A stretch of DNA of 64,000 nucleotides from Candidatus Omnitrophota bacterium (GTDB taxonomy: Bacteria; Omnitrophota; Gorgyraeia; Pluralincolimonadales; Pluralincolimonadaceae), in NCBI GenBank assembly GCA_041651455.1, contig JBAZJG010000004.1, positions 72,848-136,847 of the forward strand. The letters are read 5' to 3'. The notes under the pieces are model-generated. The model did no database searches and had not been told where the DNA came from. It saw nothing but the letters and a program-made list of their open reading frames with translations. Made by a program: the position numbers and the translations under genes. Positions 22,700-56,478 of this stretch are shown here, piece by piece. The stretch's first letter is position 1; each line of letters begins with the position of its first letter.

Positions 22700-24436
22700 T
22701 CACTTCCTTGCTTCCACTTCGCCAACGATCTTCTTTATGAAATCGGCGAGTTTCATCGCGCCGAGATCGCCCTTGCCCCTCTCCCTGACGGAGACGCTCT
22801 CCGTCTGGGCTTCCTTGCCTCCGACAACCAGCATATACGGGACCTTTTGCACTTCCGCGTCCCTTATCTTATGCTGCATCCTGCCGCTCTTGTCGTCTAT
22901 CTCTGCCCGTATGCCCCTGTCGCGCAATGCCTGGGCGGCCTTGCCGGCGTATTCCTTGTGCTCATCGGATATCGGTATTATAACAGCTTGGACCGGCGAA
23001 AGCCATACGGGAAATGCGCCGCCGTAATGCTCGATGAGCATCGCGAGGGTCCGCTCGTAGCAGCCTATCGACGACCTGTGTATTACCATCGGGGTCTTCT
23101 GCGAGCCGTCGCTGTCCACGTATTCCATCCCGAACCTTCCGGGAAGCGCAAAATCGACCTGTATGGTTATGAGCGTATCTTCCTTGCCGAAAACATTCTT
23201 GAACTGTATGTCCAGCTTCGGCCCGTAGAACGCCGCTTCATTGTCGGCTTCGGCGTACTTGAGCTTTATATCGTCGAGGATCTTCTTCATCACCCTCTGG
23301 GACTCTTCCCAGGCCTTCGGGTCGTCTATATATTTTTCCTTGTTCTTCGGATCCCATTTCGAGAACCTGTACCATATCCGGTCTTCGATGCCGAGGGTCT
23401 TCATCACGAACTTGACCAGATCGAGGACCTTCTTGAACTCATCCTCAAGCTGCGCGGGCATGCATATGATATGCGCGTCGGCCAGGGTGAACTGCCTTAC
23501 CCTCGTCAACCCGTGCATCTCGCCCGACGTCTCGTTGCGGAACAGCACCGCGTTCTCGCAATACCTTAAAGGCAGGTCCTTGTAGCTTCTCGTCTTGGCC
23601 TTGTATATCATGAACTGGAAAGGGCAGGTCATCGGCCTCAGGGCTAGCACTTCGTCGCCTTCGCCTTTGCCGTTTATTATGAACATGCCTTCCCTGTAAT
23701 GGTCCCAGTGGCCCGATATCTTATAGAGGTCGCTCTTTGCCATATACGGCGTCTTCGTGAGCAGGTACCCTCTCTTCTCTTCCTCGTCCTCTATGAACCT
23801 TTGCAATATCTGGATGATCTTTGCACCCTTGGGCATTATAAGGGGAAGGCCCTGCCCTACGGCCTCGTTCGTTGTAAAGAGCTCCAGCATCCTGCCAAGC
23901 TTATTATGGTCCCTCTTCTCCGCCTCTTCCTTGTCTTTAAGGTAACTGACTAATTCTTCTTTCGTCGGAAAAGCCGTCCCGTAGATGCGCTGCAGCATCT
24001 TGTTCTTCTCGCTGCCGCGCCAGTACGCCCCGGTCGCCGAAAGCAGCTTGAACGCCTTTACCTGGCCGGTCGACTCTATATGCGGCCCCTTGCAAAGGTC
24101 TATGAAGTCGCCGTCCTTATAAAGGGTCATCTCCGCTTCGGGAAGGTCCCTTATAAGCTCCACCTTATATTGCTCGCCGATCTTCTCAAAGAACTTTATC
24201 GCCTCGTCCCTCTTCATGGAGGAACGCTCGAACTTCAGGTTATCCTTTATTATCCTGGACATCTCCGCTTCGATCCTGGCAAGGTCCTCCTCCAGGAAGG
24301 GCTGGGGAGAGTCGAAATCATAATAAAAACCGTCCTCTATCGCCGGCCCTATAGCCAGTTTTACGCCCGGATACAGCTTTTTTACGGCCTGGGCCATAAT
24401 ATGTGACGTTGAATGTCTTAGGGTATCCAGTTCCAT
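22700..24436 (-). CDS. thrS: threonine--tRNA ligase (lacks the N-terminal TGS domain)
   Basis: Starts at RHSTSHIMAQA...GPAIEDGFYYDF (editing domain), followed by class II core and anticodon-binding domain. The track ORF start is extended into the tRNA-Val gene, so the start was reset to MELDTL at 24436. Confidence 0.88.
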   Translation of the reverse strand: MELDTLRHSTSHIMAQAVKKLYPGVKLAIGPAIEDGFYYDFDSPQPFLEEDLARIEAEMSRIIKDNLKFERSSMKRDEAIKFFEKIGEQYKVELIRDLPEAEMTLYKDGDFIDLCKGPHIESTGQVKAFKLLSATGAYWRGSEKNKMLQRIYGTAFPTKEELVSYLKDKEEAEKRDHNKLGRMLELFTTNEAVGQGLPLIMPKGAKIIQILQRFIEDEEEKRGYLLTKTPYMAKSDLYKISGHWDHYREGMFIINGKGEGDEVLALRPMTCPFQFMIYKAKTRSYKDLPLRYCENAVLFRNETSGEMHGLTRVRQFTLADAHIICMPAQLEDEFKKVLDLVKFVMKTLGIEDRIWYRFSKWDPKNKEKYIDDPKAWEESQRVMKKILDDIKLKYAEADNEAAFYGPKLDIQFKNVFGKEDTLITIQVDFALPGRFGMEYVDSDGSQKTPMVIHRSSIGCYERTLAMLIEHYGGAFPVWLSPVQAVIIPISDEHKEYAGKAAQALRDRGIRAEIDDKSGRMQHKIRDAEVQKVPYMLVVGGKEAQTESVSVRERGKGDLGAMKLADFIKKIVGEVEARK

Positions 24437-24451
24437 AGTAATAAAATTAAA

Positions 24452-24528
24452 TGGTGGGCCTAAGAGGACTCGAACCTCTGACCTCTTCCATGTCAAGGAA
24501 GCGCTCTAACCAACTGAGCTATAAGCCC
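24452..24528 (-). tRNA. tRNA-Val (anticodon GAC)
   Basis: Cloverleaf with acceptor GGGCTTA/TAGGCCC, anticodon loop TTGACAT, T arm AGAGG-TTCGAGT-CCTCT, CCA encoded. Its own TTGACT-17-TATAAT promoter lies at 24542-24570. Confidence 0.85.
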
Positions 24529-24541
24529 ACAGCGAACCTAA

Positions 24542-24570
24542 ATTATAGCGATTAAAGGGTTTTAAGTCAA
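24542..24570 (-). promoter_or_regulatory. sigma70-type promoter of tRNA-Val (-35 TTGACT, 17 nt spacer, -10 TATAAT)
   Basis: Near-consensus hexamers. The predicted TSS is ~7 nt upstream of the mature tRNA 5' end. Confidence 0.55.
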
Positions 24571-24600
24571 GGATAAATAGGATGGCCTGCGGGCTGGTTC

Positions 24601-24639
24601 ATTAAATTACAAAGGCCGGGGATCTCGGGATCCCCGGCC
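24601..24639 (-). terminator. rho-independent terminator after PEP-CTERM gene 24688-25329
   Basis: Perfect GC hairpin GGCCGGGGATC-cga-GATCCCCGGCC followed by TTTGTAATTT on the minus strand. Confidence 0.7.
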
Positions 24640-24687
24640 ATCTTCCTCGGGTTAGTTGGGGTTGAGGAAGAACATCTTAATAAACGC

Positions 24688-25329
24688 TTATTTAACCGCT
24701 TTTTTCCTTAATCCGAGCAGCCCTACAAGGCCCGATCCGAGTAAAAGAAGGCTCGTCGGCTCGGGAACGGTAAACTGCGCGTCGTCGAACCACACCGTGC
24801 CGGTGGCGCTTGTGCCTGTCCCGGGAGCAAGCAGGGTCAGACGGTAGTCTATATACGCCGCGTTGGCAGGCGCTGTCCTCTCAGCCTCTGACCAGGAGCT
24901 TAAGCTCTGGTACTGCCAATCCCCCGAACCTGAGGTCTGATGGACTATACCTATGCCGCTTCCCAGCTCTTCCTGGCTTGCGTTAAGCCATTTGCACTCC
25001 AGGTACGCCTCTATGTTGCTGAGGTTCTCCCATTTCATCCATACGCCTCCGTCAACGACATCGCCGGGATTTACTGCGAAGATCTGCTTCGCTCCGGCCA
25101 TCTCCCATGAATCGGTCGTAGGACCGGCAGAAAGCTTCAGCGCCTGGCTGCCTTCGTGGACCGAATCGGCAGCGTCGTAATCGATCGTCCACTGCGGGCC
25201 CCAGTTGTAATCAAGCCACGGCCCCTGTCCTGCGCCTTCGAAACCGTAATCTCCGACAGCGTTTGCGCATGCAAAAGAAGGCATTGATATGGTCGTTAAA
25301 ACTGCTAATACGGTAAATAATCCCTTCAT
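24688..25329 (-). CDS. PEP-CTERM-anchored secreted protein with CBM4/9-like carbohydrate-binding domain
   Basis: Signal peptide. C-terminal VPEPTSLLLLGSGLVGLLGLRKKAVK has the PEP motif, a hydrophobic helix and a basic tail. Confidence 0.8.
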   Translation of the reverse strand: MKGLFTVLAVLTTISMPSFACANAVGDYGFEGAGQGPWLDYNWGPQWTIDYDAADSVHEGSQALKLSAGPTTDSWEMAGAKQIFAVNPGDVVDGGVWMKWENLSNIEAYLECKWLNASQEELGSGIGIVHQTSGSGDWQYQSLSSWSEAERTAPANAAYIDYRLTLLAPGTGTSATGTVWFDDAQFTVPEPTSLLLLGSGLVGLLGLRKKAVK

Positions 25330-25370
25330 TTGTTCACCCCCTCTCTTTTTCCTTGGTTTAAAGGTCTATT

Positions 25371-25462
25371 TGTAAACGCTTACATATAAATCTAAAAAAT
25401 AGAGCGCTGTATGTAAGCGCTTACATTACTGAAATGTTATCATCCGTATCATTGAATGTCAA
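25371..25462 (-). promoter_or_regulatory. promoter (-35 TTGACA 25457-25462, -10 TAACAT 25434-25439) plus two cre/LacI-type palindromic operators: TGTAAGCGCTTACA (25412-25425) and TGTAAACGCTTACA (25371-25384)
   Basis: The first is a perfect 14 bp palindrome overlapping the predicted TSS. The second, imperfect copy sits ~40 nt upstream of the start codon. Confidence 0.5.
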
Positions 25463-25467
25463 GATTA

Positions 25468-25824
25468 TTATTTTGCTAATTTTGAGGAATAAATGAGGGT
25501 CTTTACGATAGCTATCGCGACGAATAACGTCGATGACCCGCCCCCCAGGAACACGACTATTGCAGGATGCGTATCGTCGCGTACCGGAATAAGGAAGCAG
25601 GCTATCGCCGTTACCAATACCGGAACGGACCATATTACCATCTGGCGGCCGCCGTATGCATTTATCTCATACCATAATTCAGGCGACTTGAACGCTTTCG
25701 GCAACCTGAACCCGTACCAGTAATTCATCGGTATCTTGCGCTTGGCGAGGGGGATACCAAGGGCGATAAACAGCAATCCCATTACCAGATTTATAGCGAT
25801 AAATGATGCCTGTGTATTTCCCAT
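25468..25824 (-). CDS. small membrane protein, possibly SdpI/YhfL-family
   Basis: Three to four TM helices and NYWYGFRLPKAFKSPELW motif. Preceded by a TTGACC-17-TATACT promoter. Confidence 0.35.
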   Translation of the reverse strand: MGNTQASFIAINLVMGLLFIALGIPLAKRKIPMNYWYGFRLPKAFKSPELWYEINAYGGRQMVIWSVPVLVTAIACFLIPVRDDTHPAIVVFLGGGSSTLFVAIAIVKTLIYSSKLAK

Positions 25825-25870
25825 CTTCTTCCCTTTTTGATTAAGTATACACCATAAGTCGGACCCGGTC

Positions 25871-25906
25871 AAAAACAAAAGGGCGGGGATCTCGGGATCC
25901 CCGCCC
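25871..25906 (-). terminator. rho-independent terminator after PEP-CTERM gene 25953-26579
   Basis: GGGCGGGGATC-cga-GATCCCCGCCC hairpin followed by a T-tract on the minus strand. Confidence 0.7.
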
Positions 25907-25952
25907 CTCTTCCTCGGGTTAGTTGGGGTGTTTGAGGAAGATATTTACCGGA

Positions 25953-26579
25953 TTATGGCCTTTTCCTTAAACCGAGAAGTCCGACAAGGCCTGAACCGAG
26001 AAGAAGCAGGCTCGCGGGCTCGGGTATCGGCGCTGTATCAAGGTAAGCATCATCAAAGTAAGCGGTGCCAGAACCGCCGTCTACGGTCTGGTTCACGAAG
26101 AAAGCCAAAGACGCGTATGACGCGGTGACCGGGGCGGCGCCGCTTATATTAAGGGCTGTCCAGTCATGCGTGCCAGTAAGCACCGGGGACGCGCCGGCCG
26201 TGCCGACCCATCCGCCCGTCGAGTTGAACCAGTCTATCTTGACAAAGGCCTCTTCATTGACAAGGGCGTTGGTCTTGGCGAATATTGTGCCGTAATACGT
26301 GGTGCCGGGTGTAACGGCAGCCATCGTGTTGCTGTACATGAAATAATCGTCGCCCGTGCCGGATGCGCTGTTCGATGTTATCTTCGTCGACTTAACGCCG
26401 GTCCTTGCGGCTTCGGTGCTGCCGTATGTGCCGGTGTGCTGGCTGTTTCCCCAGAGGCCAAGCCACGGGTCCGGGGCCGTATTTTCAAAGCCTGAGTTCG
26501 TGAGCATGTTAGCGGCTTCCGATGCGGAAGCGCTGAACATTACCGCTATAGCTAAAACCAATATTGCGATAAATTTCAT
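25953..26579 (-). CDS. PEP-CTERM-anchored secreted protein with CBM4/9-like domain
   Basis: Signal peptide. NMLTNSGFEN...W start typical of CBM_4_9. C-terminal IPEPASLLLLGSGLVGLLGLRKRP. Confidence 0.8.
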   Translation of the reverse strand: MKFIAILVLAIAVMFSASASEAANMLTNSGFENTAPDPWLGLWGNSQHTGTYGSTEAARTGVKSTKITSNSASGTGDDYFMYSNTMAAVTPGTTYYGTIFAKTNALVNEEAFVKIDWFNSTGGWVGTAGASPVLTGTHDWTALNISGAAPVTASYASLAFFVNQTVDGGSGTAYFDDAYLDTAPIPEPASLLLLGSGLVGLLGLRKRP

Positions 26580-26591
26580 CTCTATTCTCCT

Positions 26592-27122
26592 TTAGTTTCC
26601 TTTTTCTATAGTAGCGTCAAAATCATCGAAACAGGCCTCACCTGTGGAACCGGCCACGCCTCTTGCGTATCCGAGCACCCTTGCTTCGATCGCTCCCGCA
26701 GGCGCTTTGCCGTTGACCTCCAGCTTCTTCCAGGCCGTGGCGCCCCTGATATGTTCGCTCTCTTTATGCCCTGAGCTCAAAGGGCCTGCGCTTCCCCAGA
26801 ACTCAAGCCGGACAAAGGCCTCGGCGCCGTTGGACAACGCTTTCGAGTCCGGGCTCATTACCCATGCGCTGGCTTTCACCATCTCGCCGGGATTGACCGG
26901 TATCTGCTGCCCATAACAACCCTGCCCTAATCCCTCGACCTGCCTGCATGCCGCTTTCTCCCCGCTGTATTTATACTCGGATGTCACTATCCCGCTCGTG
27001 GCCTGGTCGTTCCAGTTGTACCAGCTCTCCTCTTCCGATTCGAAGCCGGGATTGATCATGTCATTGGCATGGCAAGCGGAACATATCGACATGGCAATAA
27101 CCGCCGATAACAGCTTCTTCAC
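26592..27122 (-). CDS. secreted CBM4/9-like protein without PEP-CTERM anchor (GTG start)
   Basis: Signal peptide, MINPGFESEEESWYNW domain start, no C-terminal sorting signal. Co-transcribed with the 25953 gene. Confidence 0.5.
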   Translation of the reverse strand: MKKLLSAVIAMSICSACHANDMINPGFESEEESWYNWNDQATSGIVTSEYKYSGEKAACRQVEGLGQGCYGQQIPVNPGEMVKASAWVMSPDSKALSNGAEAFVRLEFWGSAGPLSSGHKESEHIRGATAWKKLEVNGKAPAGAIEARVLGYARGVAGSTGEACFDDFDATIEKGN

Positions 27123-27236
27123 TTGTTCACCTCCCTCCTTTACTCATAAAATAGTTTCTCATTACTAAATTGTTTTACTATACTGCAAAAATATACCACC
27201 TGCGCATACCATTGTCAAGCGTAATAAATTGTTATT

Positions 27237-28937
27237 TTATGGTGCTTTTTCCAGGGTAAGAGGATTGAATTTGTTCTTGGCGAATATGTACCATGAGGCC
27301 ACGGATACCGTCCCCATATCGGCCCTGCTCCAGTTATAGCCGCCTTCCCTGTTCGCAGTATACGGTATAGTACGGCCCTTCGCCCCCTTGATATTCCTGT
27401 CGACGAGGAAAGCATCCATCTGGTTGGCGTAGAAATACCCTCTTTCCTTGTCGCCTTCGGTAATATACGCGCACGCAATATGGCCTGTACCGTCAAGCCA
27501 TATATTGTTTATGTTTATGTCGGCATGATCGAAGAAACCCATAACTTCTTTGCCGTTCACATTCAACGTCTTGCGGTACCTGAGGTCATATTCCGGGATG
27601 TTCAACAGGGACGCCGTTCCTTTGCCGTATGCAAGGACCCTCCAGGTATAGTTATCCAGCGGAAGCGTATTGCCTTTCAGTACCGAATCGAGCCATATGC
27701 GTATCTTGTCGGCGTACGCGTCCTCCTTGCAGAGTTTTAGCGCGGCATAGCAATCGATATTGCCTTCCGGATGCCCGCCGTCCTCATGGAGCTTCTTGTC
27801 CCCGCTCCTCCATCCGTGCTGTATATAACCGCCTTTTCCGCCCGGATCGTCCTTATACCATGATATCAACAGGTCTTTCAGCATCCCCGTAATATCCCTG
27901 TATCTCTCCGGCCCGTATTCCTTCTCGTAATATTTGTACGCGATAAGAAGCCACGCCATGTCGCCCATCCAGCGGTCCGCCTTGCCGGGGTTATGGTACG
28001 CCGGAAGGTTCCCCTCGTTCCTTAGGTTCACGTACTGGAAGAACCCTCTCGCTTCCCCTTTATAAAAGAAATTCTGGTATGACGGGCACCTGTTATTCCT
28101 GTCCGTTGACTGGGCGTAGAAATCGAGTATGCGTTCCGCCCTTTCTTTTTCGCCCTTCAGGATGAACGCCATCGCGACGAGCGAATTATTGAACGTGTGC
28201 GCCTGATTATCTTCCGCGGTCGGGAGAAGCTGCTTGTCTTCGGAGAAGTTATCCTGGCACAGCTTGAGCCATTCCAATACGAGCGGGTCCTCCGGTACAA
28301 GCTCTGCGTCCCTTCTCTGCTTGAACCCGATGCCTTTCAGTTCCCTGTCCGGGTCAAGCACCGGGCCCACGACCGAGAATGAGGCCGGCAACCCCGGCTT
28401 GCCTAAACCGATCTCGTCCAGGTCCACCGTGCCTTTTCCCTTGCCGGAAAAAGCTATCTCCAGGTTAACAAGCTTATCGAACTTATCGTCCCCGCCCCAT
28501 CCGTATTCAAGGTTATTCCTGTATATCACGACCTCTGTCCAATCCGCATATTTGCCCCTCAGGGGGAATTTCCTGAAGAATACGGAGCCGTCCGCGTCGA
28601 CCAGCTTGATCTCCATGTCCGAAGACGAATCGGACTTGATCAGGAATGTCAAAGGGACATCCTCCGGCATTTTTTCCGTCATCTTCCTGCGTATAAGCAC
28701 CCAACCGTAATCACCCCTGAGCTCATACACCGCCCGGATACCGTCGTCCGACTTTCCCGGCGCGGAGGATATCTCTATGGTACTCTTCCCGTCCATATCG
28801 GCCTTCCACTGGCCAAGGTCGTCCCAGCTCGCCTTCGCGGGGGTTTGGGGCTGCGGCCCGGGTTTTTGCGCTTGCTCATACTCCTTGCAACCGGACACTA
28901 AAAGCAGTAACACCGCCAGACAGGCAACCTTCTTCAT
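27237..28937 (-). CDS. lipoprotein with N-terminal beta-sandwich domain and C-terminal six-hairpin glycosidase-like domain
   Basis: Lipobox LLLVSGC. Paralogous to 32517-34271 (shared WYIFAKNKFNP vs WYIFAKENFNPF motif). Glycosidase assignment is an inference, not motif-verified. Confidence 0.4.
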   Translation of the reverse strand: MKKVACLAVLLLLVSGCKEYEQAQKPGPQPQTPAKASWDDLGQWKADMDGKSTIEISSAPGKSDDGIRAVYELRGDYGWVLIRRKMTEKMPEDVPLTFLIKSDSSSDMEIKLVDADGSVFFRKFPLRGKYADWTEVVIYRNNLEYGWGGDDKFDKLVNLEIAFSGKGKGTVDLDEIGLGKPGLPASFSVVGPVLDPDRELKGIGFKQRRDAELVPEDPLVLEWLKLCQDNFSEDKQLLPTAEDNQAHTFNNSLVAMAFILKGEKERAERILDFYAQSTDRNNRCPSYQNFFYKGEARGFFQYVNLRNEGNLPAYHNPGKADRWMGDMAWLLIAYKYYEKEYGPERYRDITGMLKDLLISWYKDDPGGKGGYIQHGWRSGDKKLHEDGGHPEGNIDCYAALKLCKEDAYADKIRIWLDSVLKGNTLPLDNYTWRVLAYGKGTASLLNIPEYDLRYRKTLNVNGKEVMGFFDHADININNIWLDGTGHIACAYITEGDKERGYFYANQMDAFLVDRNIKGAKGRTIPYTANREGGYNWSRADMGTVSVASWYIFAKNKFNPLTLEKAP

Positions 28938-29149
28938 TGGTATCTCCTTTAGTATATGAGTTTCTTATTACTAAATTGTTTTACCAGTTAATAAAGATAC
29001 CACCGGAATAAGCTTTTGTCAAATATATATTATTTTGCGAAAAAGGGTGGAATGCGGGAAACGCCTAGAATAGAAAAAGGCTCCCAATTCCTGGAGCGGA
29101 AGGTTGGAAGCCTTTTTCGTCCCCCTACTTCTAACTTAACCTGCTTTAC

Positions 29150-29770
29150 TTATTTCTTTCTTCCTAATCCCATCAAACCAACAAGGCCTGAACCGAGAAG
29201 CAACAGGCTTGCGGGTTCCGGAACGGCAGCGACATCAAAGTTGAAGTTGTCAAAATCGCTTTCGCCGGGAACTTCATACGGATCATTCGCGTACGTACCG
29301 AACATGATCCTTGCCGTAACAGCATCGCTCGGAGCTACTATAACGCCGGTGTCCCCAAGGTTATACTGATCTCTTGTCAAGGCTTTCATGTCGACCATCG
29401 TCTTGCTCGCTAACGTACCATTAGCCCTAAGGAACTTGACTCCGATGTATGAACCCCAGCTGTTGGCAACCGTACCCGAAGGAACTAGCGCATAACCGGT
29501 AAGGTTATACGACTGTCCACCCGTGATGGCAACTTCCTGCTTCATACCGCCATCGTTGTAGTTATGAAGATTGTGAGTCCCGCTCACAGGGTTATCGGTT
29601 ACGACAACCTGGTTTTCCGCATTCCAACCGTCAGGCGCATCAGCTGACCAACCGTACGCATAATCTCCGTCTACCGAGATCTCAAAATCACCGTTGACCA
29701 ACAGGTTCGCGCTGGCTACACCAGGCACCAACAGTACCGCTAAGCTTACCAATGCTACTAATTTACCCAT
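29150..29770 (-). CDS. PEP-CTERM-anchored secreted protein with CBM4/9-like domain
   Basis: NLLVNGDFE start. C-terminal AVPEPASLLLLGSGLVGLMGLGRKK. Operonic with 29781-30413 (10 bp gap, RBS AAAGGAG). Confidence 0.8.
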   Translation of the reverse strand: MGKLVALVSLAVLLVPGVASANLLVNGDFEISVDGDYAYGWSADAPDGWNAENQVVVTDNPVSGTHNLHNYNDGGMKQEVAITGGQSYNLTGYALVPSGTVANSWGSYIGVKFLRANGTLASKTMVDMKALTRDQYNLGDTGVIVAPSDAVTARIMFGTYANDPYEVPGESDFDNFNFDVAAVPEPASLLLLGSGLVGLMGLGRKK

Positions 29771-29780
29771 CTTTCTCCTT

Positions 29781-30413
29781 TCACCCCTTTCTTTTTACCT
29801 TTCCCTTATTAAACAACCCTACTCCCAACAATCCACTGCCCAATAACAACATACTGGCGGGTTCCGGAATGGGGGTGGATTCAACGATGAGGTCATCAAA
29901 GATTCCCCTTCCGTCACCACTGCCAGTATTGTTTACTTCCCAAACCATTGTCGCCTTGACTATATCGGATCCGTAGTTTGACGGGGTCACTATAGCCGTC
30001 TTATCGTTCCAAACATTGTCCGTAAGCTCATTACCCGTAAGGCTACCGGTAGTCCACGTTCCTACTATAGAATCGTCCGAACGCTTGAATTCCACTCTTA
30101 ATGAGGCGGATGAACCGTTCCTAAGGGACTCGTTCCCGGCAACATCATCAAACAAATAACCCCCAATCTTATAGGTTGATCCTGGATCTGATATAGCGAT
30201 ATCCTGCCAGCCCGATGTTGCCCACCATCCCGCAGCGGAATAGCTTCCCGAGTTTCCCCAGGTATTTATAGTCGCATTTGTACCGTTCCACTGGCTCCAT
30301 CCGGTAAAATCCCCATTTTCAAACCCGGAGTTTGTCAGAAGATTGGCGTGCGCTATAGGATATGAAGATAACATCATTACAAGGACTGCTATTAATACGG
30401 CTTTTGTCTTCAT
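29781..30413 (-). CDS. PEP-CTERM-anchored secreted protein with CBM4/9-like domain
   Basis: NLLTNSGFENGDFTGW start. C-terminal IPEPASMLLLGSGLLGVGLF...KRKG. Confidence 0.8.
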   Translation of the reverse strand: MKTKAVLIAVLVMMLSSYPIAHANLLTNSGFENGDFTGWSQWNGTNATINTWGNSGSYSAAGWWATSGWQDIAISDPGSTYKIGGYLFDDVAGNESLRNGSSASLRVEFKRSDDSIVGTWTTGSLTGNELTDNVWNDKTAIVTPSNYGSDIVKATMVWEVNNTGSGDGRGIFDDLIVESTPIPEPASMLLLGSGLLGVGLFNKGKVKRKG

Positions 30414-30430
30414 TGCTTCTCAACCCCTTT

Positions 30431-30573
30431 ATCGATACGTGTTTATTAAACAAACGTAATAAACTGTTTCTTCATTCGGTTGATTTTGTATTTTAGAAGT
30501 TGCTATCGTAGAATATATATCGACACGTGTTTACGAATGCATATAATATACCTTAAGAATGTAAATGTGTCAA
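30431..30573 (-). promoter_or_regulatory. promoter (-35 TTGACA 30568-30573, -10 TATATT 30545-30550) plus two ACACGTGT-core operator repeats (30519-30532 and 30431-30444)
   Basis: ATCGACACGTGTTT sits at the predicted TSS and ATCGATACGTGTTT ~20 nt before the start codon. The core is a palindrome. Confidence 0.5.
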
Positions 30574-30620
30574 GAGAATTATATTGCTATTATATAGCAA
30601 ATAGTTGTTATATTGCAGAT

Positions 30621-30649
30621 AAGAAAACAGGGGAACATTTCTGTTCCCC
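30621..30649 (-). terminator. rho-independent terminator after PEP-CTERM gene 30693-31319
   Basis: GGGGAACA-gaaa-TGTTCCCC hairpin plus TGTTTTCTT. Confidence 0.65.
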
Positions 30650-30692
30650 TGTCCGGTTCTCCCTCGGGTTATTGGGGATTGAGGAAAAATAC

Positions 30693-31319
30693 CTACTTCT
30701 TGGCGCTCTTATTTCTTATTCCTATAATACCGATCAGGCCTGAACCGAGAAGCAACAGGCTGGCCGGTTCCGGTATCGGCTGCGTATCGATCATGAAATC
30801 ATCGAAAATACCGCGTCCGTCTCCAGAGCCGCTGTTATTGACCTCCCATACAAGAGTCGCATGGTCTATCCCTGCGCCATAGCTTGCCGGGGTCACTACA
30901 GCCGTCTTATCGTTCCACGTGTTGTCCGTCAGGTCGGCTCCTGTCATGTTACCGGTCGTCCAGGTGCCAACGATGTTGTTGGCCGCGTCCTTAAACTCAA
31001 CCCTTATCGATGCATAACCACCGTTCCTTAAGGACTCGTTCGCGGCAACGTCATCAAAGACGTAACCTCCGATCTTCACCGGCGTATTGGCGTCTGCAAT
31101 GATCGCATCCTGCCAGGCCGATGTCGCCCACCATCCTGCAGCAGAGTAATTTCCGGTACGTCCCCAGCTGTTGATAATAGCATTGGTGTCGTTCCACTGT
31201 CCCCAGTCGCTGAAGCTCCCCGTCTCAAATCCCGCGTTGCTGAGAAGATTTGCGGCGTCCGCCTGGGCCGGTATTACAAGAGCTGCTGCAAACAGAAGCA
31301 CTGCAACCAACTTTCCCAT
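30693..31319 (-). CDS. PEP-CTERM-anchored secreted protein with CBM4/9-like domain
   Basis: Start reset to MGKLVAVLLF (strong SD GGAAAGGAGG). C-terminal PIPEPASLLLLGSGLIGIIGIRNKSAKK. Confidence 0.8.
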   Translation of the reverse strand: MGKLVAVLLFAAALVIPAQADAANLLSNAGFETGSFSDWGQWNDTNAIINSWGRTGNYSAAGWWATSAWQDAIIADANTPVKIGGYVFDDVAANESLRNGGYASIRVEFKDAANNIVGTWTTGNMTGADLTDNTWNDKTAVVTPASYGAGIDHATLVWEVNNSGSGDGRGIFDDFMIDTQPIPEPASLLLLGSGLIGIIGIRNKSAKK

Positions 31320-31340
31320 ATCTTTTCCTCCTTTCCTCAA

Positions 31341-31463
31341 TTCGACACGTGTTGAGTTATTCATTACAATAATCCCTTGCCGGAATTATAGGGATTTATT
31401 TAGAGTGATTCGACACGTGTTTAATTGTTAATTTATTATGCATTAATTAAGTGCCTGTGTCAA
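31341..31463 (-). promoter_or_regulatory. promoter (-35 TTGACA 31458-31463, -10 CATAAT 31435-31440) plus two TTCGACACGTGTT operator repeats (31409-31421 and 31341-31353)
   Basis: Same architecture as the 30431-30573 unit. The repeats flank a small hairpin, ATCCCT-n12-AGGGAT, in the 5'UTR. Confidence 0.5.
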
Positions 31464-31494
31464 GATTAATATATTGCTTTTTTGTAGGACTAAT

Positions 31495-32517
31495 TTAGGC
31501 GGGCTTGACGGACTCCCTCCGGATGTATTCCGGAGTGAATATAACCGTATCATTCTCTACCTTTTTCCCCGATACTATATCCAAAAGCATCTGTGCGGCG
31601 GTCTTGCCTATCTCGACCAGCGGAAGCCTCATGGAACTTAACGTCGGAGATCCCGGGGGAAAAGGGAACATGTCGTTAAAACCTATTACCGAAATATGCT
31701 CGGGGACCGAAAGGCCGGCATCACGTATCCTTCTTATTGCGGCAAGCGCCATGACGTCGTCGGAAGCCACTATGCCGGTGATCCTCGGCTCCTGCTTCAA
31801 CAGGATCCCGGTAGCTTCGTATGCCTTCTCATAGATGAACAACCCTTCGGCCACGAGGTTTTCGTCGAATCCCGCGCCAGCTTCAGATAGCGCTTTTTTA
31901 TATCCGGCGAGCCTGTCCTGGTCGAGTTGGAACCTTAACGCGCCGCTGAGGAACGCTATCCTCTTATGGCCGGTGTCGAGCAATTCTTTTGTCGCCCTGA
32001 AAAGGCCTTCCTTGTTATCTATCAGGACTTTCGGTATCTTTATGCCCTTGATGTACCTGTTCACAAGCACTATCGGGAACTTCTTTTCGAAGAGCGTCGT
32101 CACATCCTTCTCGAGCGCCTCTTCGACAAGTATGCACATGCCGTCGACCCTTTTTTCTTCGAAGGCCTTCATGTAATACGGGGAAAGCGGCTCTTCTTTT
32201 GGCTTGATCGCGCGGGTCAACTGGAAATAATAACCGTTCTTCTCCAGCACTCCGGCGATACCGCTGACCACATGGCTGAAATACGAATAATATATGTCCT
32301 CGAAATCCTTTACCACCACGGCGATATTAAACGTCTTCCTGCTGACAAGGCTGCGGGCTATCACGTTAGGAGTGAAATCGAGGTCCGCGACCACCTTGCT
32401 GACCCTCTCCTGTGTCTTCTTGCCCACCTTCTGAAGGTCCTTCCCGTTAATGACCCTCGAGACGGTGCTTATGGACACTTTCGCCTTTTTGGCTATGTCT
32501 TTATATGTGTATGCCAT
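31495..32517 (-). CDS. LacI-family transcriptional regulator
   Basis: N-terminal HTH (YKDIAKKAKVSISTVSRVING) and periplasmic-binding-protein-like sugar-binding core. It is the last gene of the operon 34923 to 31495. Confidence 0.85.
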   Translation of the reverse strand: MAYTYKDIAKKAKVSISTVSRVINGKDLQKVGKKTQERVSKVVADLDFTPNVIARSLVSRKTFNIAVVVKDFEDIYYSYFSHVVSGIAGVLEKNGYYFQLTRAIKPKEEPLSPYYMKAFEEKRVDGMCILVEEALEKDVTTLFEKKFPIVLVNRYIKGIKIPKVLIDNKEGLFRATKELLDTGHKRIAFLSGALRFQLDQDRLAGYKKALSEAGAGFDENLVAEGLFIYEKAYEATGILLKQEPRITGIVASDDVMALAAIRRIRDAGLSVPEHISVIGFNDMFPFPPGSPTLSSMRLPLVEIGKTAAQMLLDIVSGKKVENDTVIFTPEYIRRESVKPA

Positions 32518-34271
32518 TAATTAAGGTATATCCTATACAGGTTCACCGCGGAATTCCCGCTGCAATCCTCCACCCTTACCTCGAACGTCATCTTTCTTAC
32601 GCCTTCCCTGTCAAATATTCCGTTCCCGTAATTTTGCAATTCCGGGCTCCTCTTGAACCCGTCCTTCATGTCCAGTGAAAAACTCTCCGGCTCGCCGCCA
32701 TAAAGGTATATCGGGATGCTTTCAAATGGCTCGCCTTCTTTGTCATACACTTTTACCTTTATGGACGTTTTCTGCGCGCTGCCGGAAAGCTCCAGGTTCA
32801 ATTTGCCGTACTTTCCCCAATCCTGCGGACAGAGAAAAGGACGGCTGATCGTCCCCCAGCAGGTTTTCGCCGTCTCTTCCGGCTCGATGGTTATCTTCAT
32901 CGTATTTACTAGTTTACCTTTAGATGATGCCGCCGGCGCCAATTTCCTTGATATCTTGCAATGCCCCGCCGAGACCATCTCCGAAGGATACGCCGTCTCG
33001 AATTTTATGCTGCCATCCGTGAAATAGTCTATTACCGGGACGAACTGGAAGGCGGGCTTATAATCGATGCTGTCGACTGTCTTGTTCGCCCGTTCCTCGT
33101 CCTGTCCCATCGAAAATGGGTTGAAATTCTCTTTCGCGAATATATACCAGCAAGTGCTCGATATACATAGCGGGCGGTCCTGCATAATCCAGCTGCCGTA
33201 AGCGGTCGTGCCTTCGTTCGTCGCGTATGGCAATGCCGAAGCGTTCTTGTGGACAGAACTGGCCGTAAGCGCCTTGTCCAGCTCCGACAGGAAATGCGCG
33301 CTCTCGTCTTTCCTTCCGGCCCTGTCGAACGCGAGGACCATCTGGGCTGTGCCTTCCAGCCATACGGAATCTTTGTCCGGATAATGGGACTTTTCGTAGG
33401 TGGAACCGAAATCGAAGCCCTCTATTTCGACACCGTTGACCTTATACATCTTCTTCGTAAGGCTCTTGTCTATCGCGAAATCGAGCGTGGGCCCGTAAGC
33501 GCGCCCGAGCGCGAGGACCGCCCAGCTCGACTGGTCGGTCGCGAAATTAGGGTTGTCCCTGCCCATATTGAACCTTTTCTGTTCTTTGTTCCAGGCGGCG
33601 TTCTCCATCCAGAACTTTATCTCTTTCGCGACGCCGAGGCACCGCATATCGCCGGTAAGCACACCGAGGTCCCTGAACGCTGCATAAGAGTCGAGATTGT
33701 GTTCGACAGATATCCATGTCATCGGCTCCCCGTTTCCGTAATATCCGCCTATGATCCCGCCTTCTATCGACTGCAGCGACATCAGCCATTCAACAAGCGT
33801 CTCCGCAAGGTCCGAATACCTGATATCTTTCGATACATATGTATAATGGTTTATCGCGATGAGCATCCATGCGTTCGGGCCCGCAGCCCACGTCTTTCCC
33901 CAGCGCCCGTCCTTGCGATAGGCATCACTGAACCCTATGAACTTGCCGTATTTCTTTATCTCCTTGCGGTAGGTGCTGTCGAAGAAATCCAGCACCTGCC
34001 TTGCCCTTTTCAAATCGCCGCGGGAGGTAAAGACAATGACGGCAAGGGCCTGGTCATAGGTAAAACAATCGGTCCCGCCCTCATAGCTCGGAAGCAGCCC
34101 CGACGTAAAGAATATCAGGCGCCGGTTCGATTCCTGCTGCGCGACAAGCCACCTGTATGCCTTGTCCGTTCCATCGTCCTGCATCGGGCCGGGATCCTGC
34201 CCCCAGCACACCGGCCCGGCACATAGCACACATAACAACGCAGACGCCGTAAGGGCGCGTATTTTATTCAT
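32517..34271 (-). CDS. secreted six-hairpin glycosidase-like protein with C-terminal beta-sandwich (CBM-like) domain
   Basis: Signal peptide at MNKIRALTASALLCVLCAGPVCWG. Paralog of 27237-28937 with reversed domain order. Function is an inference. Confidence 0.4.
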   Translation of the reverse strand: MNKIRALTASALLCVLCAGPVCWGQDPGPMQDDGTDKAYRWLVAQQESNRRLIFFTSGLLPSYEGGTDCFTYDQALAVIVFTSRGDLKRARQVLDFFDSTYRKEIKKYGKFIGFSDAYRKDGRWGKTWAAGPNAWMLIAINHYTYVSKDIRYSDLAETLVEWLMSLQSIEGGIIGGYYGNGEPMTWISVEHNLDSYAAFRDLGVLTGDMRCLGVAKEIKFWMENAAWNKEQKRFNMGRDNPNFATDQSSWAVLALGRAYGPTLDFAIDKSLTKKMYKVNGVEIEGFDFGSTYEKSHYPDKDSVWLEGTAQMVLAFDRAGRKDESAHFLSELDKALTASSVHKNASALPYATNEGTTAYGSWIMQDRPLCISSTCWYIFAKENFNPFSMGQDEERANKTVDSIDYKPAFQFVPVIDYFTDGSIKFETAYPSEMVSAGHCKISRKLAPAASSKGKLVNTMKITIEPEETAKTCWGTISRPFLCPQDWGKYGKLNLELSGSAQKTSIKVKVYDKEGEPFESIPIYLYGGEPESFSLDMKDGFKRSPELQNYGNGIFDREGVRKMTFEVRVEDCSGNSAVNLYRIYLN

Positions 34272-34923
34272 TCGATAACATGAAATCATCCAGGTATACG
34301 GTGGCTCCCGGGCCGTTGCCTACATCGGCTCCGAAGGCTATGCCGATATTGTCGAGAGATTTAACGTCTATGCCGGACTTGCGCAGTCCGGCTACGGATA
34401 TCGTTATCTTCTTCCATTCCTTCGTGGCCGATTCAACCGATATCTTTGTCTGCGGCATATAACTCGGCGCGTGGCTGTCCCTGAGGACTATTTCCATGTT
34501 CTCGCCGCCGTTCTCGCCCTTTACCCAGAACTCTATGTTCTTGAAGCCGGATATGTCCTTGCTCTTGACCTTCTTCGGGACTGGAACGGCATCGGTTACC
34601 GGGCCCATATCTATCGAAAAACTTCCCCATGCCTCTGATGCCTTGCTTCCGAGGGCGTTGACAAGTCGGAACGATTGCTTCCCGCTATGAACGTTCCTCA
34701 TATCATACCCCGGCACGTCCGGAGCATAGTACCAGCTGAACGGGGTGTTCTTGTCTTCCCAATTAGGTTCCAAAGACCCGTAGACCCCGACCTCGCCTCC
34801 GAGGTTGTTCGGATGGCCTTCAAAATCCGCTATGACTGTGATGCTCTCTTCGGAAAACGATTGCCCAGGAATAAAAAATATAGCGACAGTTACCGCCGCT
34901 ATAAGAAATATCAGTCCTTTCAT
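34264..34923 (-). CDS. secreted CBM-like (jelly-roll) protein
   Basis: Signal peptide. Domain resembles the beta-sandwich modules of the two glycosidase-like proteins. Preceded by a TTTACA-17-TATAAT promoter. Confidence 0.45.
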   Translation of the reverse strand: MKGLIFLIAAVTVAIFFIPGQSFSEESITVIADFEGHPNNLGGEVGVYGSLEPNWEDKNTPFSWYYAPDVPGYDMRNVHSGKQSFRLVNALGSKASEAWGSFSIDMGPVTDAVPVPKKVKSKDISGFKNIEFWVKGENGGENMEIVLRDSHAPSYMPQTKISVESATKEWKKITISVAGLRKSGIDVKSLDNIGIAFGADVGNGPGATVYLDDFMLSNE

Positions 34924-34968
34924 GCCGGCCTCCTTTAGCCTGTATTATAACTCATTGACCTTTCGATG

Positions 34969-35002
34969 TAAACAATGGGGGGCCCGTAATAATCCGGGCC
35001 CC
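34969..35002 (-). terminator. rho-independent terminator after PEP-CTERM gene 35015-35668
   Basis: GGGGCCCG-gattatta-CGGGCCCC hairpin followed by CCATTGTTT. Confidence 0.6.
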
Positions 35003-35014
35003 GCTTGTTAACTG

Positions 35015-35668
35015 CTAGCTTTTCTTCCTTCTACCGAGACCGAGAAGCCCAATCAGCCCTGTACCGAGCAAGAGCATGCTTGCCGGTTCCGGAACGGGCG
35101 CAAACGACATGTCATCCACCCACAGCGTGCTGTTAGGCGAATACGCGCCGCTTGTCGAAAGGGCGACGACGGCAGATACCTTCGTCGTCCCTGCAGGGGC
35201 AGCCGCGGTCGTGACAGAGAGAGGGTGCCATGTGTCTGCCGTTACCGAGTTGTCGAATAAGGCACTCTCATCCACGCGGATGACGTTGCCAAGCGAGTTG
35301 TACCATTTGACCTGAAGCTTGGCTGAACTGCCGTCCTTAAGCGTATCAGCGGAATTCCACAGGAAATAACCATTCAGTAAGTAGGGGGCACTGAAATCGA
35401 TCCCTGTGAAGTCCTCGTTGAAATACGCATAATCGGTGTTGTTTCCGCCCCACATGACAACCTTCGCTGCCTTGGCGCCGCTCATTGCAACCGAAGAATC
35501 ATAGAATGAGTCGCCATTAACGCCGCCGCTCCACGTCCATGGGCCGTCCTTTAAAGCAATAGCCGATCCGCCGAGCTCAAAACCCGGATCGCTCAGGAGG
35601 TTGGCAGATGCCTGCGATGAAAACAAGCCGAATACCGCTACCATCAGTATTACCCTGAATATCTTCAT
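35015..35668 (-). CDS. PEP-CTERM-anchored secreted protein with CBM4/9-like domain
   Basis: Start reset to MKIFRV (SD AAAGGAGGTGA). C-terminal VPEPASMLLLGTGLIGLLGLGRRKKS. Confidence 0.75.
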   Translation of the reverse strand: MKIFRVILMVAVFGLFSSQASANLLSDPGFELGGSAIALKDGPWTWSGGVNGDSFYDSSVAMSGAKAAKVVMWGGNNTDYAYFNEDFTGIDFSAPYLLNGYFLWNSADTLKDGSSAKLQVKWYNSLGNVIRVDESALFDNSVTADTWHPLSVTTAAAPAGTTKVSAVVALSTSGAYSPNSTLWVDDMSFAPVPEPASMLLLGTGLIGLLGLGRRKKS

Positions 35669-35691
35669 TATCTCACCTCCTTTCATTTATT

Positions 35692-35778
35692 GGTTAAACG
35701 TTTTCCTTATAACCCTTTAAAAAAAGGAAAACGATTTCCTTTGCTTTGAAATTTTATCATATCCCAGAATAAAGTCAA
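35692..35778 (-). promoter_or_regulatory. promoter (-35 TTGACT 35773-35778, 16 nt spacer, -10 TAAAAT 35751-35756) plus two GGAAAnCGTTT operator-like repeats (35726-35739, 35692-35706)
   Basis: GGAAATCGTTTTCC and GGAAAACGTTTAACC both have an AACGTT-type centre typical of LacI/PurR-family operators. Confidence 0.45.
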
Positions 35779-35808
35779 GATTATTATATTGTTATTTTAT
35801 AGTAATAA

Positions 35809-36459
35809 TTAGAGGTAATCCGGAAGGATCTTTACTGCTTCGCGTATGAACTTCCTGCATCTTTCGAGCGCGGCTGTCGTGTCGTTATCCGTTATAGCGG
35901 TCCACACCCTTATGGCCGACCCGCCGCTCTTGCCCCCCCTTAGCTGGTTAATGACAAAATACAGCTGTTGCCTGTAAAAATTCTCCGTCATTACGTCGCC
36001 GGCGGTATACCAGTCAAGCATCAGTACCTTGTTCTTCGATATCTGGTAGATCGACTCGTTGGCCGACATCTGCTTTCCCCCGCCGAGATCGATATCCGCC
36101 TTTCCCTGCGTCAACATCTCGGTGCGGCCGCTCCCGAGATAACAATATTCCGGAGGATGGAAACTCTGCCTCTTCTGGTCCGAATATACCACCTGCATCG
36201 ATACTCTTTCGTTGCCCGGCCCGAGGTAGGTGCGTATCAGCACTTTGTCCGTCCCGAGGACCTCATATACCTGTTTCAGGTATTCCTTGTCCTTAAACTC
36301 GACGTTCGCTCCCTTCCACCCGGAAACATCCATGGGGAATGACATCAGCCTGACTTCGCGCGCCGGCGTCCTTTTTATTGACGACATGAAAAATACCGCG
36401 GCCGCGCAAACAGCAAGCATAGTTACGGCTATTGCCGTATTTAGGTCTTTTTTGTCCAC
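35809..36459 (-). CDS. epsI: EpsI-family exosortase-associated protein
   Basis: ~216 aa with a single N-terminal TM helix. Overlaps the 3' end of the exosortase gene, which is the typical XrtA-EpsI arrangement. Assigned by context and architecture. Confidence 0.55.
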   Translation of the reverse strand: MDKKDLNTAIAVTMLAVCAAAVFFMSSIKRTPAREVRLMSFPMDVSGWKGANVEFKDKEYLKQVYEVLGTDKVLIRTYLGPGNERVSMQVVYSDQKRQSFHPPEYCYLGSGRTEMLTQGKADIDLGGGKQMSANESIYQISKNKVLMLDWYTAGDVMTENFYRQQLYFVINQLRGGKSGGSAIRVWTAITDNDTTAALERCRKFIREAVKILPDYL

Positions 36460-37277
36460 GACAACATTCTCCCTGCCAGTATTAATCCCGCTATAGCGAA
36501 TACGTATACGAGGAAACCGAGAAAATCATGTGCAAATGTCCCCGGGGACGCCGCCTTTGCGTCGTAGGCAAACGCTATAAGCAAAAGGAGCACGATCCGG
36601 ATTATGTTCGCCCCTAAGGCGATGGGTATGGACAGCACGAATATCGCGATCTTCTTGACCGTTGACATCTTGATCAGATAAGCATAGAGAGCACCCAGGG
36701 CGGTCAGGGCTATCAGTGAACTAAGGCCGCTGCATGGACTGCCTATAGTAAGGAAGGTATCGGGCCTCAGGTGTACGATGCTGCCGTCCCTGACGGCAGG
36801 TACCCCCATAAGGCTGATTATGAACGTCGCCGCCTGCGCGGCCATCATCTTCATCTTGAAGCTAACGCTTATTATAAAGACCTGCGGCAACGGGACCATG
36901 AACACGAGGAACAGGATAGCAAACGCTATCTTCTTCGTGATCCCTGTGCCGTAAATATAAAGAGACAGCCCGAACAGCGTGAATATCAGAGTGAACCCGG
37001 AGATGAAGTTGATCTCGAAAAAATACGCGAATAAGTGCAGCAGTAAAGCCGGCAGGAACAGCGCAAGGCCGATACCGAGAGGCCTTATTTCCGCATTTTT
37101 GAGCTCATTCCTTCTCAGCCAGACCAGGTATGCGAAAACAAGGGGCACGAGGTAACCGTGCGAATAATATGTGTCGGCTTCCTCGAAACGCGCCGCCATC
37201 CAGACAAAAGTCGGCCAGTAGACCGCTATTAAAAGAGCTCCGACTATAAAAGGCCCGAACCTTGATATAAGTTTCAT
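36441..37277 (-). CDS. xrt: exosortase (XrtA-like transpeptidase for PEP-CTERM proteins)
   Basis: Eight TM helices. Conserved motifs SHGYLVP, catalytic Cys in IGSPCSGLSSL, and Asn/Arg in GANIIRIV. Confidence 0.75.
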   Translation of the reverse strand: MKLISRFGPFIVGALLIAVYWPTFVWMAARFEEADTYYSHGYLVPLVFAYLVWLRRNELKNAEIRPLGIGLALFLPALLLHLFAYFFEINFISGFTLIFTLFGLSLYIYGTGITKKIAFAILFLVFMVPLPQVFIISVSFKMKMMAAQAATFIISLMGVPAVRDGSIVHLRPDTFLTIGSPCSGLSSLIALTALGALYAYLIKMSTVKKIAIFVLSIPIALGANIIRIVLLLLIAFAYDAKAASPGTFAHDFLGFLVYVFAIAGLILAGRMLSWTKKT

Positions 37278-38972: not shown

Positions 38973-39429
38973 TCTCGAACGACTTCTTTATTACCAGTAT
39001 CTTCTTCTTGAGGTCGGCTTCCTGCTTTTCATCATCAACGAACGATACGCCGACATCATATTTTCCCGGTTCCTGTTCCACGGGAGGCTTGACCCAGCTG
39101 ACCTTTACCAGCGTCTTTACCGGTTCTATATCATTTCCGGGCATTATATCCAGGGTTATGTGCATCTCGGGCACCAGATCCTTATTAAACTCTTCGCCAT
39201 TACCGTTATCTTCCTTAAGCCTGCATTTCGAATTATGGACCCATCCCAGGCAGTTTGAGCAGCTGATGCAATCCCATGAGCGCGGCCACTCAAGCAAGGC
39301 ACCCCCCTCACTTAAGTTCTTTGCTTTCAACGGGATATCACCAGAAATATCTATCTTCTTCTGAGGATCTACAAGCTTCCCCTTAATAGCAACATTTATT
39401 TCGACACGTTTAAACTTTCTGCGTTCCAA
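38965..39429 (-). CDS. PilZ-domain (c-di-GMP-binding) protein, first gene of the exosortase operon
   Basis: RRKFKR ... NLSEGGA, i.e. the RxxxR / DxSxxG PilZ motifs. Start reassigned to TTG at 39429 (SD AAGGAG 6 nt upstream), because a TTGACA-16-TATACT promoter at 39463-39490 places the track start upstream of the TSS. Confidence 0.6.
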   Translation of the reverse strand: MERRKFKRVEINVAIKGKLVDPQKKIDISGDIPLKAKNLSEGGALLEWPRSWDCISCSNCLGWVHNSKCRLKEDNGNGEEFNKDLVPEMHITLDIMPGNDIEPVKTLVKVSWVKPPVEQEPGKYDVGVSFVDDEKQEADLKKKILVIKKSFEND

Positions 39430-56464: not shown

Positions 56465-56478
56465 GGTCTTCGGAAATT

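Follow-up and report, generated by a model that had tools for sequence, protein, structure and literature searches.

Paired ACACGT-class boxes as probable repressor operators in the leader of an exosortase-cargo operon of an uncultured Omnitrophota bacterium

Introduction

The 5' leader of a PEP-CTERM operon in an Omnitrophota genome contains the same short box twice, once just past the promoter and once just before the start codon. What are these boxes, and what kind of regulator would read them? The stretch of DNA analyzed here, 64,000 nucleotides in full and referred to as the window, is part of a metagenome-assembled genome assigned to Candidatus Omnitrophota; metagenomes are the only source for this organism. 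To our knowledge, the regulation of PEP-CTERM/exosortase cargo is almost unexplored. Likewise, we know of nothing on gene regulation in Omnitrophota, a group for which we know of no cultured, genetically tractable members, and our literature search on PEP-CTERM regulation in Omnitrophota found no paper.

Judged by sequence comparison, the two boxes are real, conserved sites of an ordinary operator kind, with a new consensus and an unusual regulon and phylum. On balance, we consider it probable that they are a pair of DNA operators (14-bp imperfect dyads, extendable to ~20 bp, with a central CpG) for a dimeric repressor, most probably a member of the LacI family, which would be encoded elsewhere in the genome.

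The locus and its cargo genes

The window contains an exosortase/EPS locus and, after it, an array encoding small secreted PEP-CTERM proteins. Besides EpsH and EpsI, the EPS locus includes glycosyltransferases, Wzz, a secretin, a GGDEF response regulator and an AraC/PocR regulator. The genes and boundaries used below are as follows:

36441..37277: EpsH
35809..36459: EpsI
31495..32517, minus strand: LacI-family gene (Pfam LacI and Peripla_BP), ending just before the gene B promoter
31319..30693, minus strand: gene B (ATG at 31319), PEP-CTERM (Pfam), 63% identical to A
30413..29781, minus strand: gene A, with a signal peptide, a beta-sandwich of sugar-binding type and a PEP-CTERM anchor (Pfam PEP-CTERM, AlphaFold)
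29770..29150, minus strand: gene A2, the second PEP-CTERM protein of the operon, after a 10-nt gap
30654..30625 and 29097..29080, minus strand: terminator-like hairpins bounding the A-A2 unit, the latter ending it

The description of A-A2 as a PEP-CTERM operon is borne out, in that both proteins carry PEP-CTERM and the unit is bounded by the hairpins. The AlphaFold model of A (pLDDT 86) has as its best Foldseek matches the Fbs1 sugar-binding domain, CBM16, CBM61 and CBM4; since these are sugar-binding beta-sandwich domains, the cargo is predicted to be lectin-like. The other cargo paralogs in the array are only 23-35% identical to A and B.

Related loci, numbered here with the letter L, were collected by way of orthologs of lacI, of A and of A2. 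When 29150..31319 is compared with L004, L056, L058 and L140, the cargo genes prove to evolve much faster than their surroundings. Between the window and L004, the LacI protein is 98% identical, yet coding DNA of B, A and A2 only 78-87%, a pattern that suggests diversifying selection or recombination acting on surface proteins. Two further observations concern tRNA sequences. A tRNA gene (24455..24528, minus strand; Rfam 72.8 bits) lies inside the start of the listed thrS ORF (22700..24496), so the real thrS start should be further downstream, and the region ~56400..56480 (minus strand), just upstream of the EPS-row promoter, resembles the 3' half of a tRNA.

The two boxes and their promoter

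In the order in which it would be transcribed, the leader of gene A has the following elements:

30569..30588, minus strand: upstream element AGCAA-N10, joined to the -35 (pattern ARCAA-N10-TTGAC)
30573..30568, minus strand: -35 hexamer TTGACA (promoter scan, 11/12 positions match)
30550..30545, minus strand: -10 hexamer TATATT after a 17-nt spacer (promoter scan; largely conserved in the six-leader alignment)
30533..30518, minus strand: 16-nt repeat unit of box 1, TAAACACGTGTCGATA (read directly)
30533..30520, minus strand: 14-bp operator of box 1, TAAACACGTGTCGA, with half-sites TAAACAC and GTGTCGA, at ~+6 to +19
30496..30503, minus strand: mid-leader block GCAACTTC, in which AACTTC is invariant in six leaders
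30445..30430, minus strand: 16-nt repeat unit of box 2, TAAACACGTATCGATA (read directly)
30445..30432, minus strand: 14-bp operator of box 2, with half-sites TAAACAC and GTATCGA, conserved in orthologous leaders
30427..30424, minus strand: ribosome-binding site GGGG of gene A, 2 nt past box 2 (ATG at 30413)

Both boxes are thus found where the preliminary description had placed them in the 5'UTR of the 30413-29150 operon. It had put the first at about +5 relative to the TTGACA-17-TATATT promoter; if transcription starts ~7 nt past the -10, the 16-nt unit occupies ~+6 to +21, after a gap of 11 nt from the -10, and its center lies ~+12 from the putative start and 113 bp before the ATG. The second, said to be about 20 nt ahead of the start codon, ends 16 nt before it, with a center at 25 bp, slightly nearer than the usual 30-140 bp range of LacI-family sites. 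The idea of dual cores needs amendment: both boxes are present, but ACACGTGT occurs in box 1 only, box 2 having ACACGTAT, and the unit that is repeated is longer, at 16 nt. The two units are direct copies (15/16 identical) separated by 72 nt, or 88 bp from center to center.

Two other features of this leader were considered and set aside. A small upstream ORF of nine codons (ATG at 30474), which runs up to box 2, lacks a ribosome-binding site, and its frame is lost in L004 through a 1-nt indel. An antisense promoter was suggested by the promoter scan, where TCGACA of the reverse-complemented box scores as a -35 near plus-strand hexamers resembling a -10, but the ortholog variants TCGAAA and TAAACA are poor -35s and AT-rich leaders readily yield such matches.

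The motif is well above random frequency in the window. A scan of the 64 kb with the 16-mer, allowing up to 3 mismatches, gives 4 matches where 0.57 are expected (0/100 shuffles reached 4), and ACACGTGT occurs 3 times versus 0.23 expected. All four 16-mer matches fall in the 5' leaders of the two adjacent paralogs A and B, on one strand and in one layout. A further motif match, at 39401..39414, is inside a PilZ coding sequence at the RRKFKRVE motif and is attributed to chance. The corresponding elements of gene B are:

31463..31435, minus strand: promoter TTGACA-17-CATAAT (promoter scan), upstream of B box 1
31423..31410, minus strand: box 1 of gene B, half-sites TAAACAC and GTGTCGA (16-nt unit TAAACACGTGTCGAAT, 31423..31408)
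31355..31342, minus strand: box 2 of gene B, half-sites TCAACAC and GTGTCGA (16-nt unit TCAACACGTGTCGAAT, 31355..31340), just 5' of the ribosome-binding site

Conservation and shape of the sites

Within nine loci (the window, L001, L004, L005, L056, L058, L136/L137, L138 and L140) there are 30 ACACGT-class sites, representing 11 distinct 14-mers. Most come from closely related genomes, so that the 30 are not independent observations; the LacI orthologs of these loci are 76-100% identical. Four more sites of the class, beyond the 30, are present in L146, a more distant exosortase locus.

When six A-type leaders are aligned, the longest invariant blocks are box 1 (14/14 positions), box 2 and the -35 region, where TTCTCTTGACA does not vary; the sequence between the boxes diverges in L001 and L005. 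The leader is at least as conserved as the coding sequence, and in L140 the A leader is 81% identical while the A coding sequence is 68% identical. Together with the central-CG dyads and the position after or on the promoter, these invariant blocks in six orthologous loci argue for the proposal that the boxes are operators.

The consensus of the 30 sites is a 14-bp dyad with a central CG, in which T[A/C][A/G]A[C/A]AC is joined to GT[G/T]T[C/T][G/T]A. Half-sites of the form TAAACAC are counted 22 times, TCGACAC 17 times and TCGAAAC 10 times, plus minor variants, and either type may occupy either side of the dyad. Perfect 14-bp palindromes exist as well: TAAACACGTGTTTA in L001, TCGACACGTGTCGA in L140 and TCGAAACGTTTCGA in L146. 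ACGT is central in 30/30 sites, a figure to be read with the fact that part of them were found by a scan requiring ACGT, where the center was not free to vary; no such filter was applied in finding the sites of the window and their positional orthologs.

The layout of the pair is less rigid than the boxes themselves. The spacing is 88-89 bp in seven A-type leaders and drifts between 68 and 71 bp in B-type leaders, with changes of 1-3 bp between close relatives. Since these spacings are out of helical phase, a rigid loop is not favored. Box 1 is flipped in L136 and L138, where it lies directly against the -10 (TATAATTCGAAACGTG). In L005, a 29-nt insertion separates box 2 from the ribosome-binding site, a distance that is therefore not conserved. 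L005 and L136 have ACACGT boxes at an A2-type gene alone; counting L146, three loci have the class at A2-type genes. L146, which is from another genus and was found through an A2 homolog, has its sites in two pairs (9849..9862 with 9961..9974, 112 bp apart, and 11952..11965 with 12063..12076, 111 bp apart) that flank the promoters of two PEP-CTERM genes located to either side of a LacI-family gene. The constant spacing in L146 hints at looping there.

Could the boxes simply have been copied along with genes A and B, as a passive remnant of duplication with no function? With A and B being recent paralogs (63% identity), co-inheritance could indeed account for two of the four copies in the window. 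Within each leader, however, the two boxes are separated by unrelated sequence, and they stay invariant while their flanks diverge in L001, L005 and L140. The class also appears in L146, which is not syntenic, and the half-sites vary only in ways that preserve the dyad. We regard a functionless remnant as extremely improbable.

Action on DNA or on RNA

Both boxes lie within the transcribed leader, and box 2 adjoins the ribosome-binding site in the window, so the repeats might instead act in the mRNA: as a site for an RNA-binding protein, by pairing of box 1 with box 2, or as part of a leader structure controlling translation or termination. The palindromic cores of leader B can pair (z = -1.89), and several sibling leaders have terminator-like hairpins between their boxes. 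Against this, the fold of leader A is no more stable than that of shuffled sequence (z = +0.43), and the consensus fold of six leaders reaches -4.25 kcal/mol with a double change in 1/13 pairs. Pairing of box 2 with box 1 is broken where box 2 has ACACGUAU or ACACGUUU, and box 2 is not at a fixed distance from the ribosome-binding site. An Rfam search of 24000..37000 with E up to 1 gave no leader match, only a tRNA and chance-level matches; leader A has neither the curated RNA family nor the covarying structure that would mark a riboswitch or attenuator.

The arrangement of the sites bears on the same question. In L136 and L138 the flipped box 1 touches the -10, and in L146 one box of each pair is upstream of the promoter. 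Given these positions, the L005 insertion and the lack of a fold or Rfam match in leader A, action on DNA is the reading to be preferred, and action in the mRNA appears highly improbable. The dyad symmetry and the perfect palindromes, together with the lack of RNA structure, covariation and Rfam match, point to DNA operators for a dimeric repressor.

Some structural features of the leaders are recorded here in their own right. In the six-leader fold, RNAalifold pairs GCAACTTC with the GGGGTTG ribosome-binding region, at only the -4.25 kcal/mol given above and with essentially no covariation; the block could weakly pair with that region. In many of these leaders the interval from box 1 to box 2 contains a terminator-like hairpin, often with a T-run after it; leader A has none. 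The leader hairpins are located as follows:

25403..25421, window: leader of gene C
31371..31396, window: leader of gene B
56250..56275 region, window: leader of the EPS row
~2540-2570: L002
~1355-1380: L007
~1245-1275: L012

The left arm of the gene C hairpin, AGCGCT, is the center of box 1, an arrangement kept in L140. In the gene B hairpin, the stem AATCCCT/AGGGATT is conserved and the loop is variable.

Family of the regulator

A central-CG, even palindrome is the hallmark of 1173/1303 LacI-family motifs, and most LacI-family sites are 30-140 bp before the start codon (PMC4052901). The ACACGT sites have the corresponding shape (an even palindrome of 14-22 bp with a central CG) and the corresponding position, in the promoter or leader at distances typically of 30-140 bp before the start. 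The sibling cargo genes have the same layout of a promoter and two boxes, and theirs are canonical LacI-type boxes. From these features, the boxes are most likely read by a dimeric repressor of the LacI family.

The family does not follow from the core alone, because two TetR-family proteins, FabR and EilR, also use ACACGTGT-core palindromes; our literature search on ACACGTGT returned TetR-family precedents only. The Escherichia coli FabR motif is AGCGTACACGTGTTCGCT (PMC4273635), and the EilR operator is GTTGGACACGTGTCCAAC (PMC6127294), which has GACACGTGTC in common with TCGACACGTGTCGA. A repressor outside the LacI family, such as a TetR-family protein of this type, would also fit, no cognate LacI gene having emerged from the loci collected. 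But the DNA-binding regulators among the ORFs of the 64-kb window are only one LacI and one AraC/PocR protein, with no TetR-family or other helix-turn-helix repressor, and the flanking bases differ from those of FabR and EilR operators. A TetR-family gene may exist at an unlinked site. The variant made of TCGAAAC and GTTTCGA lacks the core in which CAC meets GTG; we take it to resemble operators of the RbsR/PurR type, which belong to the LacI family. Canonical LacI-type boxes are present in every sibling leader of this layout, and LacI-family genes adjoin the ACACGT class in two non-syntenic contexts. A regulator of another family is in our view improbable, and a LacI-family repressor is kept as the preferred reader.

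In a different lineage, the A homologs of L142, L143 and L145 (50-56% identical, without a PEP-CTERM match) have upstream of them paired perfect TGTTACCGGTAACA boxes 150-190 bp apart (at 7743 and 7896, 3026 and 3176, and 1754 and 1944, respectively). These pairs bracket a small conserved ORF of 67-81 aa. Both they and the ACACGT pairs around the LacI-family gene of L146 lend further support to a LacI-family reader.

The neighboring LacI gene

If the regulator is of the LacI family, the obvious candidate is the gene at 31495..32517, the only LacI-family gene in the window (only tblastn match). It would then be a classical local regulator, binding the ACACGT boxes of B and of A-A2 itself. The ACACGT unit is directly downstream of lacI in all box-bearing loci at or above 76% identity (the window, L001, L004, L005, L056, L058, L136 and L138), while the L140 contig starts where lacI would lie, and the arrangement persists despite differing cargo, L005 and L136 having the A2-type gene only. 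The clade at or above 76% also has DNA-binding-domain substitutions of its own (K/R13 where others have G13, Q29 where others have H29), and its sole S18A member, L139, has different downstream boxes, GTAAACGTTTAC.

The wider distribution of the gene argues the other way. The ortholog clade of this lacI spans 49-100% identity, with one copy per scanned genome and hardly any variation in the DNA-binding domain; orthologs of 49-63% identity, which have no ACACGT boxes nearby, show no difference in the DNA-reading helix (VSISTVSRVIN) or the hinge. Wherever a promoter driving lacI is visible, a GGAAAACGTTTTC-type box is present. It directly follows the lacI -10 in L136/L137 (L136 2506), L139 (475), L007 (3642) and L008 (1534), and in L009-L011 (~1337-1347) it stands at the start of the operon whose last gene is lacI. 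Boxes of this kind are found at genes I and H in the window and its close relatives, with the following window coordinates:

35739..35726, minus strand: GGAAA-class box of gene I, GGAAAACGATTTCC
35706..35693, minus strand: second GGAAA-class box of gene I
34865..34852, minus strand: GGAAA-class box in the 5' end of gene H, ahead of H-G-lacI (window and close relatives)

Autoregulation applies to more than three-quarters of LacI-family regulators that act locally (PMC4052901). On that basis the cognate box would be the one in the promoter of lacI, and the GGAAA class becomes the natural assignment for the adjacent LacI; GGAAAACGTTTTCC-type boxes are probably its true operator. Among the loci collected through lacI, A and A2 orthologs, no ACACGT box was found at the promoter of a regulator gene itself. 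The co-occurrence of lacI with ACACGT units comes from one syntenic lineage and so amounts to one evolutionary event, and in L146 the class adjoins a non-orthologous LacI, only 30% identical, whose recognition helix is VAHSTVSLVMN and which has no relatives among the fetched loci.

The DNA-binding domain of the local LacI is closest to CcpA among solved structures, with recognition residues I17, S18 and R22. A reading of specificity from the recognition helix was argued in both directions and is not relied on. Overall, the adjacent LacI is probably not the cognate regulator of the ACACGT boxes; that it binds them itself has a minor but real chance. A LacI-family repressor encoded elsewhere in the genome is the reading carried forward.

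Other operator classes and a shared upstream element

The preliminary description had noted that this leader has the same layout as that of gene 25329 with a different operator. This holds: the leader of that gene (gene C) has TGTAAGCGCTTACA and TGTAAGCGTTTACA, 41 bp apart. In the cargo array as a whole there are at least four operator classes, namely ACACGT (A and B), the cre-like TGTAAGCGCTTACA (C), a GGAAAACGTTTTCC-like class (I, with boxes GGAAATCGTTTTCC and GGAAAACGTTTAAC) and GTAAAACAATTTAGTAAT (E and F). Each is kept at the orthologous gene elsewhere; the cre-like class of C recurs in L140, the GGAAA class of I in L002, L007 and L012, and E and F keep a GTAAAACA(A/T)TTT-type box.

Distinct operators on paralogous genes are therefore seen, but not one for each paralog, since A and B (63% identical) share a class, E and F share another, and the ACACGT class occurs at an A2-type gene alone in relatives. 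The further suggestion that every cargo gene has its own repressor does not stand. As far as sequence classes can tell, the mapping of class to cargo is by subfamily and not by gene, with A, B and A2 in one class and E and F in another.

Genes E and F have the identical 18-mer GTAAAACAATTTAGTAAT right after the -10 (27161..27178 and 28967..28984, minus strand; 2 matches versus 0.03 expected), and the center of this class is not CG. The similar sequences GTAAAACATTTTAC and TGCAAAACATTTTTAGCA are found downstream of lacI in L009-L011 and upstream of the L146 LacI paralog.

Several of these promoters also have the upstream element ARCAA-N10-TTGAC, with 6 matches in the window versus 0.07 expected, all on the minus strand:

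25458..25477, minus strand: ARCAA-N10-TTGAC site
27214..27233, minus strand: ARCAA-N10-TTGAC site
30569..30588, minus strand: ARCAA-N10-TTGAC site (gene A, listed above)
31459..31478, minus strand: ARCAA-N10-TTGAC site
35774..35793, minus strand: ARCAA-N10-TTGAC site
56333..56352, minus strand: ARCAA-N10-TTGAC site

Five of them belong to the cargo genes C, E, A, B and I, and the sixth to the promoter from which the EPS gene row starts (GGDEF regulator, 54204..56264). Neither the H promoter nor the lacI promoters of relatives have the element, which may serve as an UP element or be bound by a common activator; the AraC/PocR protein at 39506..40336 is one candidate. As a tentative idea, more doubtful than not, the exosortase locus may use a modular promoter code, in which the common element (ARCAA-N10-TTGACA, with a possible shared activator such as the AraC/PocR protein, which is conserved in the locus) is combined with a private LacI-type operator pair for each cargo subfamily; the surface coat would then be composed according to the glycans present, and ACACGT would be one channel.

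Proposed mechanism

We infer repression, the regulator family, a sugar effector and a role for box 2 along the following lines. A strong sigma-70-type promoter with a repressor dimer sitting on box 1, at ~+6 to +19, would be blocked in initiation or in promoter escape. Box 2 lies 88 bp downstream, and another dimer bound there might act as a roadblock or as a partner in cooperative binding or looping. Binding of an effector to the repressor would allow expression of the A-A2 operon and of paralog B; given the LacI-like shape and family of the sites and the sugar-binding, lectin-like fold of the cargo, the effector is presumably a sugar, perhaps an oligosaccharide. The sugar-binding PEP-CTERM proteins would then be displayed by way of the exosortase of the same locus.

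What this yields is a testable operator consensus, a small regulon (B, A and A2) and a map of at least four operator classes in one cargo array. Should the classes respond to different sugars, the result would be a glycan-addressable set of surface lectins, with a bearing on the attachment of these very small bacteria to substrates or hosts.

Comparison with known systems

Promoters with two sites for LacI/GalR-family repressors are well known, among them lac with O1, O2 and O3 and gal with OE and OI, and CcpA can act as a roadblock at cre sites. The boxes described here share with the LacI/GalR promoters an even dyad of 14-20 bp with a central CpG, one site on or just past the promoter with a second tens of bp away, and carbohydrate-related targets. 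The gal operators are ~113 bp apart, and the L146 pairs likewise flank the promoter, at 111-112 bp. The differences are that the half-site T[A/C][A/G]A[C/A]AC was matched to no described regulator, that the targets are exosortase-sorted lectin-like surface proteins instead of catabolic enzymes or transporters, and that the host is an uncultured Omnitrophota bacterium with both sites, in the window, downstream of the promoter.

CcpA cre sites (TGWAANCGNTNWCA) are of equal length, with a central CG and an A at half-site position 4, and neighboring gene C has near-perfect cre-like boxes in the same layout. Unlike cre, the ACACGT class has no TG at positions 7-6 and no A at position 3 of the cre half-site; neither TAAACAC nor TCGACAC fits the consensus (no G at 6, no A at 3), whereas TGTAAGCGCTTACA of gene C does. 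The operators of FabR and EilR are alike in being ACACGTGT-based palindromes just after the -10; they are unlike in the flanking half-site bases, in the existence here of the TCGAAACGTTTCGA variant without the core, in their unrelated targets and in the lack of a TetR gene in the window. Repression from paired operators is thus a textbook mechanism, and it is the setting, exosortase cargo, that is unusual.
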